Source: an uncultured archaeon (lineage in GTDB: Archaea > Asgardarchaeota > Thorarchaeia > Thorarchaeales > Thorarchaeaceae). Taken from it: DNA of 64,000 nucleotides. The stretch lies in assembly GCA_964610875.1 (NCBI GenBank), contig CAZSWP010000001.1, positions 102,161 to 166,160 on the forward strand, written 5' to 3'. The notes below the pieces were generated by a model that searched no databases, had not been told where the DNA came from, and was given only the letters and a program-made list of their open reading frames with translations. Positions 1-31,613 of the stretch are shown in pieces (position 1 is the first letter of the stretch; each line of letters starts with the position of its first letter). The position numbers and the translations under genes are program-made.

Positions 1-326
1 CTCTCATCAAGGTTGGTTCGTAGTACTCTTACACCACAGTTTATGTCATATCCCACACCCCCTGGTGATATGACTCCAGTTTCATAGTCTGTTGCCGCAA
101 CTCCTCCGATGGGGAAACCATATCCCTGATGTCCATCGGGAAGGACAATACTGTGAGAATAGATTCCAGGTAGTGCTGCTGCATTTGTAGCTTGGTCAAA
201 GGTCTTATCTTGACGCATCTTTTCAATCAAGGGGTCTGATGCGTATACCCTTGTTGGAACTCTCATCCATGATTTTGTGTTCTTAGGTATCTCATATATA
301 TTCTCAGCGATCTTCTTTAATTCCAC
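1..326 (-). CDS. rtcB: RNA 3'-phosphate/5'-OH ligase RtcB (tRNA-splicing ligase), N-terminal part; runs off window edge
   Basis: Not in the ORF track. Manual minus-strand translation from GTG at 326 gives [14 protein letters not shown]...[18 protein letters not shown]...[21 protein letters not shown], the RtcB signature motifs. GGAGAG lies just upstream. Confidence 0.95.
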
Positions 327-474
327 AGTACATCTCTCCGATTAGTAATAAGAAACCTCTCGACAGTTCCTATAAGATTTGTGAACTGTATGTTGTTGAG
401 TCTAAGGTGGACCAATATCTTCTATAGTGAGTGATTTTATGTTAAAGCAAACATATGGAGGATTGATCAATCAA

Positions 475-1509
475 GTGCCTGAAGTAAGATTGACTGCAAT
501 GGTTAGAACTCACGGCTGAAGTGTCAAGATAAAGCGGGATGACCTGATCCACCTACTCCAAAGGGCTGACCTCTTACCAAAAGATACAACCTGTAAGGAC
601 TTGGTTGGCGATGATGCCGTTGTTAGCATCGTTGATGACCAAATAGCTCTAGTAGAGAATGTTGACATCTTCACACCTATTCATGATGATCCCCTTATCC
701 AGGGAAAAATCATCGCTTGTAATGCCACAAATGATGTCTTTGCAATGGGTGCGACCAAGATATTATCCCTGCAAGCTTTTCTGGGCTATCCTAAAGAAAT
801 GCCGGAAGAAATTGCCATTGATATCTTGAGAGGAATGTCTATGTTCATGTCAAATCTTGATTCAAGGGTAACTGGTGGCCAAACCATTCGGAATCCTTGT
901 CCTGTCTTTGGTGGTATCTGTTTAGGAATCACACATCCTAGTAATATTGTGTATTCATCAGGTGCCAAACCTGGTGATATTGCAATACTAACCAAACCAC
1001 TAGGTATCCAACCTGCGATGCGTTCCTACCGTGATTTGAAAGATGAAAAACGCGATAGCTTGCTTAAAAATTTCAATGAAGCGGAACTTGTGAAAATGCA
1101 GGAAATTGCTGTGAAAATTATGACAACCAGCAATTTGGAAGTTGCGAAGGCAATGAATGAAATTGGGGTTCATGCTGCGACTGACATCACAGGATTTGGA
1201 TTACTTGGTCACGCTAGCAATATTGCAACTCTAAGTGATGTTGACATAACTATAGATTCTCTACCTGCTATTAGTGGGACTCTAGAACTTGCTGAGTTCT
1301 TCGGTCACAAACTGAAGCAGGGCTGGGGTGCCGAAACTGCTGGTGGAATGTTGATCCTCTTACCCCCCAATAAAGTAGATGCTTTCATGGCAAAACTTGA
1401 GAGTTATGGATTATCCAGCTGGATTGTTGGCCAAGCTTCAAAATCCGCCGATATCTCATCAGCAAAACTTGCAGATGATGTTCAGTATATTGAGACCGAA
1501 TTTCGATGA
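475..1509 (+). CDS. selD: Selenophosphate synthetase, selenoprotein form (in-frame TGA=Sec at 517-519)
   Basis: The track ORF 601-1509 has SelD motifs (GDDA, NATNDVFAMG, GGQT, LTKPLG, ATDITGFGLLGH, ETAGG). The same frame continues upstream as MPEVRLTAMVRTHG-TGA-SVK, matching the catalytic G-[C/U]-x-x-K motif. GGAGGA at 457-462 precedes GTG 475; alternative ATG at 439. Confidence 0.93.
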
Positions 1510-26310: not shown

Positions 26311-26441
26311 ATCGGTATCTACTCATTCCCTATTCATACTCTGAAACTTCGGATAAATATTATATGCTTGAACAATGCCATTTCTCTCAGAATACCACCC
26401 TGTTCAGTGGTGGTACCATATATTTACTGGAGCAAGATAAA

Positions 26442-28091
26442 ATGACCGCTGATGAAGTAAAGCCCATCCCTGAGAAACCAATTTCTCATGAGGATGGTAG
26501 CGTTCTTTCTCGATATCATGTAGAGAAATATCCCCCTCGTGAACTTCCATATACTACTCAATCCATTTGTCCTGAGTGCTTAATTGCAAACGATGAAGTT
26601 AATGTGATTGATGCAACTCTATATGAAGAGGATGGAAAAGTTCTCTATAAGAAAACATGCGAGAAACATGGAGAGTATATTGATGTTTACTGGGGAGATG
26701 CAGAGATGTTCAAAAAAGCCTCCCAGTGGTGGTACAAGTCTGTAGGTCTTGATAATCCCCGTACTGAAACTGTGAAGGGGTGCCCCGAAGATTGTGGTCA
26801 GTGTCCTGAGCACAAATCTCATACCGGTTTGGCATTACTTGATGTAACAAATAGATGCAACCTTCGTTGTCCAATATGTTTCGCGATAGCAGCCGAAGGT
26901 GGCGATGTCTATGAACCAACGCCCGAAGAAGTTCTTGAAATGATGAAAAACTTGCGAAGAAATGAACCAGTTCCAGCACCTGCTTTACAATTTGCGGGCG
27001 GCGAGCCAACTGTTAGCAAGCATCTACCACAATATATCAAATGGGCTAAGGAATTAGGTTTCAGACACGTGCAGATTGCAAGTAATGCAATACGTGTTGG
27101 GAAGAGTAAGGAATACTTGCAAGAACTACGAGATGCTGGTCTCTCAACTATCTATATGCAATTTGATGGTGTGACTCCAGAGCCATATATCGAAGCAAGA
27201 GGAACTAACCTACTTGATTTGAAGAAACAAGCTATTCAAAATGCTCGCGAAATTGGAATGGAATCCATAGTTCTTGTACCTACTGTTGTCCGAGGAGTCA
27301 ATGATGACCAAGTCGGAGCAATAGTTGAATACGCAGTTGAGAATGCTGACGTTATTCGCTGTGTCAACTTCCAGCCAGTAAGCATAACTGGTAGAATCGA
27401 CCACAATGCACGAGAGCAGATGAGGATCACTATTCCTGATGTAATTCATTTGATTGAGGAACAGACCGGTGGTAAGATTCCTGCAACCGAATGGTATCCG
27501 GTACCAGCCATGATGCCGGTTGGTCGTGCACTTGGGTTAATGAAAGGCACTCCACAGCTGGAACTCAGCACTCATTTTGCATGTGGTATGTCCACATTCC
27601 TATACATAAATGAAGATGGAAGCTATGAGCCAATTACTAATCTTATCGATGTTGACAAGTTCATAGTGCTACTGGAGGATATTGCCAATATTTATGCAGA
27701 TGGGAAGCGAGCTGCCAGCAAACGCGCGAAAGCAAAACTAGCTGCTGGAATCCGCCATATTAAGAGGAAAGGCATTCTCAAAGACCTTCTAAATGCATTT
27801 TTGAATCGGGGTGACTATGATTCTCTGGCTAAGTTCATGCGACGAGTCATTATGATTGGAATGATGCATTTTCAGGATCCATACAACTTCGACTTAGAAC
27901 GTGTCCAACATTGTGATGTGAATTATTCTGTACCTGATGGTCGAATCATCCCCTTCTGTACAATGAATACAATTCACAGGTCACGTGTTGAAGACAAGTT
28001 CAGTATACCTATAGATGAATGGCGTTCAAGGAGAAAACCCGACAAGGTTGAAGAAGAAAGTATCTCAAAACCATATACTGGTGAAAAATGA
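26442..28091 (+). CDS. tes: Tetraether lipid synthase (GDGT-MAS), radical SAM
   Basis: N-terminal SICPEC...KTCEKHG and GCPEDCGQCPEHKSHT; radical SAM motif CNLRCPIC; GGEPT; NFQPVS; HFQDPYNFDLERVQHC...DGRIIPFC. ATG 26442 follows GGAG. Confidence 0.88.
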   Translation: MTADEVKPIPEKPISHEDGSVLSRYHVEKYPPRELPYTTQSICPECLIANDEVNVIDATLYEEDGKVLYKKTCEKHGEYIDVYWGDAEMFKKASQWWYKSVGLDNPRTETVKGCPEDCGQCPEHKSHTGLALLDVTNRCNLRCPICFAIAAEGGDVYEPTPEEVLEMMKNLRRNEPVPAPALQFAGGEPTVSKHLPQYIKWAKELGFRHVQIASNAIRVGKSKEYLQELRDAGLSTIYMQFDGVTPEPYIEARGTNLLDLKKQAIQNAREIGMESIVLVPTVVRGVNDDQVGAIVEYAVENADVIRCVNFQPVSITGRIDHNAREQMRITIPDVIHLIEEQTGGKIPATEWYPVPAMMPVGRALGLMKGTPQLELSTHFACGMSTFLYINEDGSYEPITNLIDVDKFIVLLEDIANIYADGKRAASKRAKAKLAAGIRHIKRKGILKDLLNAFLNRGDYDSLAKFMRRVIMIGMMHFQDPYNFDLERVQHCDVNYSVPDGRIIPFCTMNTIHRSRVEDKFSIPIDEWRSRRKPDKVEEESISKPYTGEK

Positions 28092-28417
28092 ACATAAGAT
28101 AGGGGTGTTATTGGTGATCAATGTCTAGGTTTGTCTAGCTTCTGCCCCACCCCTTTCTCTTCTTTTTAGATTCTTACCAATTTCTTTAATTTTCTACGTG
28201 GTTTTTTTGATAGCGTTTTAAGAAAAATCATTTTGCTGTACTCAGGCATGAAATCTAAGAATCAGGTTAATATGGTATTTTAGTCTCAAAAAAAGCACTC
28301 TTCTATTTTTTTCTACCATCTAGTATTATCATTCGCCTTATAGTCACTCCATTATATTTTAAAAAATTAAATATTCCATTGCAGAAAACTTAATAGCCAA
28401 TGAAAGAAACTATGGAT

Positions 28418-28737
28418 TGATGATGGTGGGCGTGCGGGAACGTTGCCGACCATAATCTGCATAAGAAAAGGCGGGTGCGTGGGCTAGTTTTTCGTTACAT
28501 GCCCTCAATTACGAAACTCCCATCGCGTCGGAATACCCGTCGTGAGAGGAACCCTCCTACCACGATTTCCCACGAACCCGCCACCTTTTCCTAAAAATCG
28601 TGGGATAGGCTTCGGCCTGGACAATTGGGGGCATGTGACTGAATTACCATATTATCCTTGAAACAATTCTATCCGATATCTTTCTAGCTTAATGGTTCAA
28701 TGAATGAAAGATGAACCACTAACCCGCCACCTTCTTC
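28418..28737 (+). ncRNA. Candidate unclassified large structured RNA (~320 nt)
   Basis: GC-rich island in a 770-nt ORF-free AT-rich gap, TATA-like box at ~28389-95. Contains a GGAA-capped hairpin, a C(UUCG)G hairpin (28607-18), a 17-bp helix 28494-510:28623-39 and a duplicated AACCCGCCACCTT (28575-87, 28721-33). Confidence 0.65.
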
Positions 28738-28858
28738 GTAATGACTCAATGTCAAGAATTAATTCATCCAATTCCTTTCATGAGGAAATTTCTGACAACA
28801 ATGCGTGGCTGAAAAGCCTTATTTCCCCTTATCCGTCCGTCAGAACCGTGACATAATC

Positions 28859-30247
28859 ATGCTCGATAAGATGGAACGAGCTCTATCTGATCTCCAGGAT
28901 ACTGATGTTTCATTCTCGGAGATAAGAAATGAGGTACGTACTTCTACCAGAATATATGTGACAAATGCATCACTCCGAGATTTTTCAAGACGTGGCAAAG
29001 CGGGAACAGTTGCTCGAGTATTGGTTGGTGAATGCTGGGGCCAAGCAACCTCGACAGATGAGGTGACAAGCAGTCTTTTGAAAGAACTGTTGGAAACCGC
29101 TACTAGAATGGCGAAACATAATGCTAGTCATTCAAGGAAAAAAATTGATCTCTCTGAAGTGAAGGCCATCCAAAAACAAGTCTTTCAGAAAATGAAAGAA
29201 GATCCTGAGAGTGTGTCTGATGAAGAGAAGGCAAAGATTGTCTTCGAGATTGATAAGGCTCAAGAAATTGATGAGCGTGTTGTCAATACAAATAGTGTAT
29301 ATCAAGACACCAAGAAGCATACATTATTAGCTAACTCTGAAGGAACCCGTCTTGAGTGGGATGAGATTCGAACCTATGTAATTGCCCAAAGTGTTGCAAA
29401 GGAAGGTACGAATACACAATTTGATTACGAGGTCAAGGACTCGCTGAGTGGTTTTGAACTAGTAAGGAATTTGGATCCAAGTGAATTCGGTGCAAAATGT
29501 GCTGAAGGTGCTGTCAACTTGCTATCAGCTGAAAAGCCTCCGTCTGGAGAGATGACCGTTGTTGTAGACGGTAATATTGCAGGATTGATTGCCCACGAGG
29601 TCTGTGGTCATGCAAGTGAAGCAGATGAGGTTGTTAAAGGAAGGTCCTTTCTTACTGACAAAGTAGGTGTAAAACTAGCTGCAGAAGGAGTGTTTCTCGT
29701 TGATGACGGAACGCTTGACGGACTAGTTGGTTCATTCCCCTTTGATTCTGAGGGCACACGGTCATCTCGCACTTCTATAATCGAAAACGGAGTATATTCA
29801 GGCTATTTACATACCCTCGAAACATCTGCGATAATGGGAGTTAAACCAACAGGTAATGGTCGAGCTGAGGATTATAACAGACGTATTTATGCTCGAATGA
29901 CGAACACATTCTTTGATAAGGGCGACTGGACGAAATCTGAGATTATAGAGGATACCAAGAACGGTCTCTATCTTATCAAAGGGACTTCAGGCATGGAAGA
30001 TGTCGTTGGAGGTGGTGTCCAAGCTACTTGTTTGAAAGGTTACATCATCAAGAATGGCGAGATCGGTCAACTTCTTAGAGGAATGAGTATTACTGGTCAA
30101 GTATTGGAGATCCTTAAGACAGTTGATGCTGTAGGTGATACTTTGGAGTTCTCAGGTGGGACTTGTGGGAAAGGCGAAGAGGACTTTGTACCTGTGACTT
30201 CAGGAGGCCCACACATGCGAGTAAGAATTGTTGTAGGAGGAGGATAA
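28859..30247 (+). CDS. tldD: TldD family metalloprotease
   Basis: HEVCGHASEAD, FDSEG, TGNGRA, RMTNT, GTCGK...VPVTSGGP; ATG 28859 likely start. Confidence 0.93.
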   Translation: MLDKMERALSDLQDTDVSFSEIRNEVRTSTRIYVTNASLRDFSRRGKAGTVARVLVGECWGQATSTDEVTSSLLKELLETATRMAKHNASHSRKKIDLSEVKAIQKQVFQKMKEDPESVSDEEKAKIVFEIDKAQEIDERVVNTNSVYQDTKKHTLLANSEGTRLEWDEIRTYVIAQSVAKEGTNTQFDYEVKDSLSGFELVRNLDPSEFGAKCAEGAVNLLSAEKPPSGEMTVVVDGNIAGLIAHEVCGHASEADEVVKGRSFLTDKVGVKLAAEGVFLVDDGTLDGLVGSFPFDSEGTRSSRTSIIENGVYSGYLHTLETSAIMGVKPTGNGRAEDYNRRIYARMTNTFFDKGDWTKSEIIEDTKNGLYLIKGTSGMEDVVGGGVQATCLKGYIIKNGEIGQLLRGMSITGQVLEILKTVDAVGDTLEFSGGTCGKGEEDFVPVTSGGPHMRVRIVVGGG

Positions 30248-30248
30248 T

Positions 30249-31613
30249 ATGCACATAGCCGACAAAGCAAAAGAACTCGTAACCATGGCAGAAAAAAATG
30301 GGGCTTCTCAAGCAGAAGCATACGCAATTATTGCTAAGACTGATAGCATATATATCGATGACAATATCCCGAAAATTGGGGACTCCAAAACGGAGTTTGG
30401 TGTTGGATTCAGATTTATCATTGGTAAGAAAATTGGGTTTACTAGCTCAACCCTTCTCTCAGAATCCACTGAAGATGTGGTGGCACGCGGGAGCTCTATG
30501 GCAAACGTTGTTGAGGATGATCCAAAATTCGTTTCATTACCATCTCCCAAGAAAGTGACTGTTTCTGAGGACAAATTTTTAGATAAAGAAACAGCAAATG
30601 TCGATGCCGCTCATCTCTCTGACAAAGCAATGCTCCTTGTTGATGCAGCTCGTGATAAGCATGTAACAGTCCCAAATGGTGTTATTCGCAGGAGTATCTT
30701 GGAATATCATATTTGTAATTCACTTGGTATAGATATAGGCTCGAAATCAACCGTTCTCTTTGGATATTTCACAGCCAAATCAGAAAATGATGGAACAGTT
30801 GGTGAAGGTGTACAAAGAATGTGGTCTCGCAGAATTGCTGATCTTGACTTCGTTGCTACTGGAAAGAAGCTAAACTCACAAGCGATGGCAGTATTGAAAG
30901 CAAAACCTTTGAAAGAGAACATGGAAGATGTAACTGCCATTCTCGCTCCAAGTGAAGGTAGCGAAATGTTGGGCACTCTAGTTGCATCAGCTGCTTCCGG
31001 ACAGAATGTCAATCTTAGAAGAAGTCCTTGGACCGATAGAGTAGGTGACAAGATTGCTCATGAGAATCTGAGAATGTTCGACAATGGGGTTTCAGAGAAA
31101 GGGATACTCAGTGCTGCTGTTGATGATGAGGGTTTACCAATGCAGACCACGCCACTTATTGAGGAAGGTGTATTGAAGACCTATCTTTATGACAGTTATA
31201 ATGCATACCAGCATGATTTGGAGAGTACTTCCAATGGTATAAGAAGAAGTGCTCGTGAAGCACATGGCAGATTCCTACTTTCTCCTTCATGTGCACCCAC
31301 TACGTTAGAGGTTACACCTGGTTCCAAAACACTTGAGGGGTTGATTGCTGATGTTGATAAAGGTGTATACATCGAACATTTTGCGTATCCTCAAGTCAAT
31401 ACAACATCAGGTAGCTTCTCTAATGAGATTCGAAATGGCCAGTTAATTGAGAATGGTGAAATCACTGGGCAAATCAAGTATGCTTTACTTGTAGGTAATC
31501 TGTATGAAGCAATTCAACGAGAGATTTTACTCTCAAATTCACCAGAAGTGAATTCGAGATGGTTCATGCCTGCAATTGGTCTGACTGGTGTTGAATTAGT
31601 AGGCCAAAAGTAG
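30249..31613 (+). CDS. pmbA: TldE/PmbA family protein
   Basis: Follows tldD; DDEG, LIEEGVLKTYLYD, SGSFS, IENGEI; lacks HExxxH as expected for the non-catalytic partner. Confidence 0.9.
   Translation: MHIADKAKELVTMAEKNGASQAEAYAIIAKTDSIYIDDNIPKIGDSKTEFGVGFRFIIGKKIGFTSSTLLSESTEDVVARGSSMANVVEDDPKFVSLPSPKKVTVSEDKFLDKETANVDAAHLSDKAMLLVDAARDKHVTVPNGVIRRSILEYHICNSLGIDIGSKSTVLFGYFTAKSENDGTVGEGVQRMWSRRIADLDFVATGKKLNSQAMAVLKAKPLKENMEDVTAILAPSEGSEMLGTLVASAASGQNVNLRRSPWTDRVGDKIAHENLRMFDNGVSEKGILSAAVDDEGLPMQTTPLIEEGVLKTYLYDSYNAYQHDLESTSNGIRRSAREAHGRFLLSPSCAPTTLEVTPGSKTLEGLIADVDKGVYIEHFAYPQVNTTSGSFSNEIRNGQLIENGEITGQIKYALLVGNLYEAIQREILLSNSPEVNSRWFMPAIGLTGVELVGQK

Follow-up and report, generated by a model that had tools for sequence, protein, structure and literature searches.

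A Multi-Copy Small RNA Family, Probably Restricted to Thorarchaeota, and a Lineage-Specific Addition to One of Its Genes

Introduction

Small trans-acting RNAs that expose a C-rich sequence of the anti-Shine-Dalgarno (anti-SD) type, such as RsaE/RoxS of Firmicutes and sRNA41 of Methanosarcina mazei, make up what we take to be the comparison class for the 86-nt RNA described here. Like that RNA, they are small, are transcribed from their own promoter, and combine a stable hairpin scaffold with an unpaired C-rich tract. No sequence or structural homology to them was found, however, and Rfam, which curates many sRNA families, gave no match. The 86-nt RNA also differs from them in being multi-copy, in keeping a core of ~55 nt nearly invariant across genera, which is more than a seed region needs, and in carrying probable mini-introns; in addition, no target was found for it.

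Two other systems resemble the ends of the RNA. The 5S rRNA (RF00001) of the same lineage is likewise small and stable-looking, has its own promoter box per gene, and has a terminal helix closed by GGCGG...GCCAC and followed by a pyrimidine-rich trailer. Thorarchaeota 5S genes start with GAUGGCGGCC and end with GCUGCCACAU-UCUCC (L162-L169, L155), and the RNA family has the ends GGCGG...CCGCCACC-UUCU, so that the two may possibly share end processing or termination. In contrast to 5S rRNA, the family has one inner hairpin and no three-way junction, does not match the 5S model at E <= 10, and is encoded in addition to a separate 5S gene. The resemblance to a tRNA acceptor minihelix lies in the first 7 bp, GGCGGGU:ACCCGCC, and in the A-CC after them, which would correspond to a discriminator base and an incomplete CCA on an acceptor stem. 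Unlike a tRNA, the RNA has a terminal helix of 14 bp, lacks D, anticodon and T arms, and has no conserved A76.

The window analysed here is a stretch of 64,000 nucleotides from a Thorarchaeota genome. A first-pass annotation had described, at positions 28418-28737, a new class of structured RNA of ~320 nt, in which an internal duplicate of the 3' strand offers the 5' strand two exclusive partners, as in a bistable switch or a large pseudoknot. Our analysis leads to a different reading, to which we assign a probability of roughly 0.7: positions 28470-28585 (+ strand) are one gene of an undescribed, multi-copy small RNA family that is restricted to Thorarchaeota, and this gene is followed by a lineage-specific addition of 146 nt.

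Distribution of the RNA Family

When a 336-nt query was compared by BLAST with 60 relatives, the matches covered only query positions ~59-112 and ~143-180, and these two blocks are contiguous in the relatives; the conserved unit is therefore an 86-nt RNA. The family is unnamed and is defined here by a covariance model, R1, against which the window copy scores 90.3 bits, with E values of ~1e-17 to 1e-21 by search (3.5e-21 in one of them). By BLAST and R1, the RNA was found in 25 of the 26 sampled genomes of the window's Thorarchaeota family and in the one sampled genome of a sister family (1/1), and 0 of the 124 remaining sampled genomes of the phylum had a match. Each genome has one to seven copies according to R1. 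An exact 28-nt word from the core retrieved 88 DNA stretches from a species-representative collection; among the 80 matches listed, nearly all were titled as Thorarchaeota or archaeal MAGs, and a few bore the label Promethearchaeota or Hermodarchaeota.

The window copy gave no match at the gathering score in a search of Rfam 15, with its models for SRP, RNase P, tmRNA, 5S, riboswitches, ribozymes, snRNA and sno-like RNAs, and relaxing the threshold to E <= 10 yielded noise only (U4atac at 15 bits, mir-1228 at 21 bits); an intron-free homologue likewise had no match beyond noise at E <= 10. The literature searched on Thorarchaeota and Asgard non-coding, small and structured RNAs provided no description of the 86-nt RNA. 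The proposal of a + strand structured RNA that lacks an Rfam counterpart was thus borne out. What did not survive is its size: 76 distinct homologues end at the equivalent of position 28585, and the unit is 86 nt (116 nt here), not ~320 nt.

Known identities were considered as well. The same genome encodes SRP RNA (99.6 bits), RNase P RNA (150 bits) and a candidate 5S rRNA at other loci, and these three were rejected as identities. ARAGORN finds neither a tRNA nor a tmRNA in the window. Hammerhead, HDV-like, hatchet, H/ACA, C/D and Sm-site RNAs were rejected by eye on the absence of their box sets or topologies, and had no Rfam match.

Divergent paralogues missed by R1 occur in the window's own genome, at C4:12520-12670 (+), C11 ~210-520 (-) and C8 ~27560-27680 (-). 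The C4 paralogue has one mini-intron; C11 holds a truncated copy and a second copy with three 30-nt inserts; the C8 paralogue keeps the C-rich tract and lacks the ACAUGCCCUCA loop. Elsewhere in the family, tandem pairs of genes lie 331 nt apart, each gene with its own TATA box (L014, L048, L112), and the second gene of such pairs has a distinct leader, UCGUGAUAGG...GGCAUGAAUGAAUU. The second copy at L053 has a 60-nt addition around the loop motif.

Structure of the RNA

The gene and its immediate flanks in the window comprise the following features.

28386-28399, + strand: BRE/TATA-like promoter box AAAACTTAATAGCC, ~80 nt before the RNA body, assigned from sequence only
28423-28453, + strand: leader hairpin with a GGAA loop, present in minimum free energy (MFE) folds; its 5' strand holds the G-rich motif GGUGGGCGUGCGGGA
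28470-28585, + strand: RNA body of 116 nt, in which a 30-nt insert adds to the 86 nt of the canonical family RNA (R1 match, covariation)
28470-28483 with 28569-28582, + strand: P1, the 14-bp terminal stem, 13 of 14 positions paired in the window; GGCG/CGCC base conserved
28490-28495 with 28511-28516, + strand: P2, 6 bp, UUUCGU/ACGAAA
28496-28510, + strand: invariant 15-nt loop UACAUGCCCUCAAUU, capping P2
28517-28521 plus 28552-28568, + strand: C-rich tract, unpaired in the family fold
28522-28551, + strand: 30-nt insert that interrupts the C-rich tract, made of A, a 9-bp hairpin with a 5-nt loop, GAGG and AA
28583-28585, + strand: 3' end ACC, part of the GCCACC terminus, with TTTT next
28586-28589, + strand: run of four T residues (T4), a possible weak terminator directly after the RNA 3' end, read from sequence

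From 5' to 3', the canonical RNA consists of the first P1 strand (GGCG...GGG), CUAG-UU, P2 around UACAUGCCCUCAAUU, the segment CUCCCCCCUCCUACCACGAUU, the 3' strand of P1, and ACC; its unpaired tract is CUCCCCCCUCCUACCAC. The window copy is 116 nt long because the insert at 28522-28551 interrupts the C-rich tract, and after the insert is set aside all of the invariant core elements are present.

Comparison of homologues strongly favours this structure. In an alignment of 76 distinct copies to R1, compensatory changes were found in 13 of the 14 P1 pairs. Pairing in the modelled helices reached 97.9% over the 76 sequences, compared with 34-54% when the register is slid and with none of 500 shuffles reaching 97.9%; these values come from an alignment fitted to R1 and are hence biased toward the structure. 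Among 24 hand-picked copies, double changes were found in 8 of the 14 P1 pairs. The core is invariant across genera, while P1 and the flanks diverge. The strand is fixed as + by G.U (U.G) pairs in P1. The 76 distinct homologous copies end at GCCACC, which is position 28585 of the window.

The covariation across homologues, together with the ending of the unit at GCCACC, identifies 28569-28582 as the native partner of the 5' strand in the window. The first-pass annotation had treated this internal copy as the duplicate; the true, covarying partner is the internal copy and not the distal one.

Promoter, Leader and Neighboring Genes

A AAACTTTAATAAG box is located ~75-85 nt upstream of the RNA in most copies of the family, which also have a G-rich leader; in the window this leader is ~50 nt long. 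The sequence features support a + strand, promoter-driven, structured and non-coding RNA. Across 23 aligned leaders the motif GGU-RGG-UGUG-YGGGA is conserved; RNAalifold returned no consensus helix for these leaders, the 3' strands of which align poorly. Some copies (L059, L007) have no leader. Leaders are complementary to the core loop and to the C-rich tract above shuffled sequences (mean z -0.9 and -1.4, against +0.1 and -0.3 for trailers), an enrichment that is modest and drawn from copies that are related and not independent. Precursor masking by flanking sequence may thus be a theme of the family.

In the window the gene order is Tes (tetraether lipid synthase; 26364-28091), the RNA, TldD (28859-30247, with its ATG at 28859), and a second TldD/PmbA (30249-31613). 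One locus of the family is syntenic across genera in the order Tes-RNA-PhzF-TldD, and copies of the family lie before PhzF, before tldD and at unrelated loci. PhzF is missing between the RNA and tldD both in the window (28092-28860, compared with L151, L152 and L153) and in L006.

A cis role for tldD, which had been raised as a possibility, is unlikely: the neighbours of family copies are unrelated genes, and a conserved promoter-like box of its own, GAAAAGCCTTATTT, lies before tldD at 28811-28824. A riboswitch or other cis leader of tldD was rejected on similar grounds: a position in the tldD 5' UTR is not conserved, and the promoter-like box lies in between.

Just past the Tes stop codon, positions 28095-28163 form a palindrome, GGGGTG...CACCCC, with CTAG and TTTGTCTAG within it. 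It gave weak, hairpin-only matches to R1 (E 0.24-1.6) and is probably the terminator region of Tes.

A Probable Mini-Intron in the C-Rich Tract

The short introns of archaeal rRNA genes that form bulge-helix-bulge (BHB) motifs, together with inserts in the 16S rRNA genes of Thorarchaeota, are the nearest counterparts of the 30-nt insert at 28522-28551, which shares its build with a 16S insert in G002 and G003. They differ in their host: the window insert lies in a small non-coding RNA and not in an rRNA or tRNA, and its excision is predicted from its sequence. The first-pass annotation did not include this insert, which lies within the conserved core.

Removal of 28522-28551 restores exactly the invariant tract CUCCCCCCUCC, and the insert is probably a BHB-type mini-intron. 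The same 30-nt build is seen in the inserts of the window, L017, the genome's own C4 and C11 paralogues, and one 16S site in G002 and G003. A 4-nt strand, which reads GGGG, GAGG or GCGG, can form three or four of four pairs with exon positions -6 to -3. From the shared build, a 4-bp helix flanked by 3-nt bulges, NN^A and AA^N, is predicted. The central helix has 4 of 4 pairs in L017, C4, C11 and the 16S inserts. For the window insert, the predicted bulges are CC^A and AA^C; only 3 of 4 positions pair in its central helix, ACUC:GAGG, and no outer exon-exon helix could be established, which makes it a relaxed BHB at best. If the reading is correct, the tRNA-splicing endonuclease would excise 28522-28551 and the canonical RNA would be restored.

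Within the RNA family, inserts occur at four or more different positions. An alignment of the 16S genes of five relatives revealed 30-nt inserts in four of them, at five positions, with presence varying between genera. The literature searched on BHB introns in Asgard 16S genes yielded nothing on Thorarchaeota mini-introns.

The 16S inserts lie inside conserved sequence at L158 (G003), L160 (G002), L161 (G001) and L159 (G004). One site, which in G002 and G003 lies within universally conserved 16S sequence, has the build of A, 9-bp hairpin, GGGG and AA, and 30-nt inserts at other 16S sites were seen in G001, G002 and G004. A further observation concerns the genome's 5S rRNA candidate (C16:65988-66137, - strand; L155). 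With 37.1 bits it falls just short of the Rfam cut-off of 38, and its length of 150 nt exceeds the 120-122 nt of nine relatives. The ~29 extra nucleotides fall within the 3' half of the candidate; they may represent a further insert, built differently.

The 146-nt Addition

Downstream of the T4 run, the window contains the following features.

28590-28715, + strand: genome-specific added segment, with no homologue in the genomes and metagenome contigs searched
28595-28603, + strand: antisense to CCACGAUUU, within the added segment
28607-28618, + strand: UUCG hairpin, AGGC-UUCG-GCCU, the spacer between the antisense segments, present in the MFE fold
28623-28639, + strand: antisense to the invariant loop, within the added segment
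28716-28733, + strand: second copy of the RNA 3' strand plus ACC-UU, 17 of 18 positions identical; partly in a local hairpin, 28689-28699/28712-28722

The part that follows the T4 run (28590-28733) lies in an addition of 146 nt, at the borders of which the 3' end of the gene recurs as an 18-nt direct repeat (28570-28587 and 28716-28733, identical at 17 of 18 positions, spacing 146). At the orthologous locus L006, which has the same P1, the same type of leader and no PhzF, the RNA gene is directly followed by the tldD promoter. Window sequence beyond the distal repeat is colinear with the L006 trailer and tldD promoter (z 2.8), and the sequence after the internal copy is not colinear with the L006 trailer (z -1.4). 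Because colinearity is found only after the distal repeat, the window carries a 146-nt addition. The added segment is single-copy in its own genome and had no homologue in 61 and 151 genomes (two overlapping searches) or in metagenome contigs; metagenome scans gave 0 matches each for the tail and for the intron-bearing core. A downstream duplicate of the 3' end was found in the window only, among 93 copies scanned, and the addition as a whole did not occur in any of ~90 further copies. The closest Tes homologue is 86% identical, and no close relative was found.

The helices, repeats and hairpins of the first-pass annotation were all found in the sequence. The 17-nt inverted repeat (28494-28510/28623-28639) has 15 Watson-Crick pairs and 2 G.U pairs, and the repeat 28560-28568/28595-28603 pairs at 9 of 9 positions; the hairpin 28689-28699/28712-28722 is also present. 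The 5' strand can indeed pair with either of two partners, at 13 of 14 positions internally (28470-28483/28569-28582) and at 11 of 13 distally (28470-28482/28716-28728). The computed MFE structure is essentially the hand-drawn fold and recovers the GGAA-loop hairpin at 28423-28453 and AGGC-UUCG-GCCU. For 28410-28745, the folding energy of the + strand was -115.7 kcal/mol, compared with -88.7 +/- 6.0 for dinucleotide shuffles (z -4.5; 0 of 100 as good), and the - strand gave z -2.7.

A single functional RNA of ~320 nt (28418-28737), the 5' strand of which toggles between its internal and distal partners as a switch or a large pseudoknot of a new class, would account for the energetics of the full-length sequence. 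The full-length MFE structure uses the distal partner together with a 24-bp helix built on the 17-bp repeat, and forcing the internal partner raises the energy from -115.7 to -95.9 kcal/mol. Moreover, the complementarity between tail and core goes far beyond chance: the window trailer is the lone outlier among 83, with a duplex energy of -24.1 kcal/mol (z -7.1), and the next best is -13.3. Body and tail are parted by the T4 run alone. Against this reading, the 3' 150 nt are absent from all 76 distinct homologues, no relative carrying the extra helices was found, and covariation backs the internal partner alone. The outer helix, the 17-bp and 9-bp helices, the UUCG hairpin and the distal repeat all depend on a 146-nt segment of a single genome, and the class of bistable switch or large pseudoknot proposed in the first-pass annotation has no comparative backing. 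For transcripts ending at the T4 run, the family fold is predicted. Read-through to 28737 is predicted to allow an extended fold that is ~20 kcal/mol more stable, which destroys P2 and buries the invariant loop conserved in the family. The bistable fold would thus be thermodynamically possible only if transcription reads through the T4 run, and we consider the ~320-nt functional unit very unlikely.

The antisense segments may alternatively be a functional, lineage-specific cis-antisense lid. In a read-through precursor, 28595-28603 and 28623-28639 would mask the C-rich tract and the loop; only 3' processing at the P1 base would then activate this copy, and the G-rich leaders of other copies may play a similar part. 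The state of the antisense segments would be odd for neutral debris: the 9-mer is perfect (9 of 9 pairs), both mismatches of the 17-mer are G.U pairs (15 of 17 plus two G.U), which would be consistent with selective preservation of pairing, and the spacer is a clean UUCG hairpin. T4 is a weak terminator for archaea, and read-through is therefore plausible; family leaders also show increased complementarity to the C-rich tract and the loop. The lid is nonetheless a single example, the leader enrichment is the modest one described above, from related copies, and we regard this reading as unlikely.

The 146-nt segment might be a remnant of a mobile or integrative element that targets the 3' end of an RNA gene with tRNA-like ends, with duplication of the attachment core as at tRNA genes. 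The 18-nt direct repeat covers exactly the 3' end of the gene, the flank after the distal repeat looks ancestral, and the window lacks the PhzF gene that separates the RNA from tldD in other genera. But neither an integrase nor any further gene of such an element is present, and the genome has the insert once only. In the 92 other copies, a scan of up to 6 kb downstream showed no duplicated 3' end, and L006 has no insert although it, too, lacks PhzF. These points make an integrative remnant most improbable. A MITE or IS remnant was also rejected, given that flanks and P1 diverge while the core is invariant, that one locus is syntenic across genera, and that the add-on is single-copy, though flanked by the 18-nt direct repeat. 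As a source of the tail, an inverted copy of the gene had no significant support outside the two antisense blocks (local z ~2.1, global z ~1.6).

The addition would be a scar of duplication or insertion, most simply what is left of a second, tandem gene copy with its leader and 3' end retained. The first 60 nt of the addition resemble the leader of the second tandem copy at L014 (z 2.8), and the remainder is unlike the RNA body (z 0.5). A decayed tandem copy is the origin that we prefer, with low certainty.

Possible Functions

The unpaired tract of the 86-nt RNA includes CCUCCU, the anti-SD hexamer of the ribosome. The 3' end of Thorarchaeota 16S rRNA is GAUCACCUCCU; CCUCCUA, which is identical to this 16S end, is unpaired in the predicted folds of the RNA. 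Upstream of crudely called starts in the window's own genome, GAGG is most frequent at -14 to -11; TAGGAGG precedes start codons 20 times, compared with once in shuffles. An anti-SD-type regulator is plausible because the tract has CCUCCU, as does the 16S 3' end, and because an SD-like GAGG peak precedes the starts. A genome-wide search for complements of the core found no mRNA target, the best complements being the paralogous RNA genes on the opposite strand (C4:12520-12670, C11 and C8) rather than start regions. Complementarity between the core and 16S rRNA was no better than background.

We suggest that the mature 86-nt RNA would act in trans by means of the C-rich tract and the loop that it exposes, which is the weakest step of the proposed mechanism, and that it would be either an anti-SD-type regulator of translation or the RNA of a ribonucleoprotein (RNP). 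In the precursor, tract and loop would be masked by the G-rich leader and, for this copy, also by the tail in read-through transcripts. An abundant RNP RNA would fit equally well the near-invariance of ~55 nt, the rRNA-type mini-introns and the 5S-like termini. A broader proposal, that the 86-nt RNA is a new housekeeping class of Thorarchaeota with a global role in translation initiation or ribosome function and that the tail is a cis-antisense lid making this copy two-state, appears unlikely to us at present.

Implications

An impressive hand fold can come from local duplication, which calls for caution when RNA structure is read from one sequence. Rfam contains no matching family, and no paper on a Thorarchaeota-specific small RNA was found in the literature searched. 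With strong covariation, a range within one order, multiple copies and a core held about as tightly as rRNA, the family offers metatranscriptomic and biochemical work a well-defined target.

Splicing of the 30-nt inserts, if it occurs, would extend the range of BHB-type mini-introns from rRNA into a small regulatory or RNP RNA. The occurrence of inserts at several positions of one C-rich tract bears on how such introns spread, as the GGGG strand needs a CCCY exon site. Were the housekeeping reading true, Thorarchaeota would have an RNA abundant enough to gain rRNA-type mini-introns, with 5S-like ends, that displays an anti-SD sequence. The exposed anti-SD sequence suggests a means by which SD-dependent initiation may be tuned in a lineage that uses SD sequences for some genes only.
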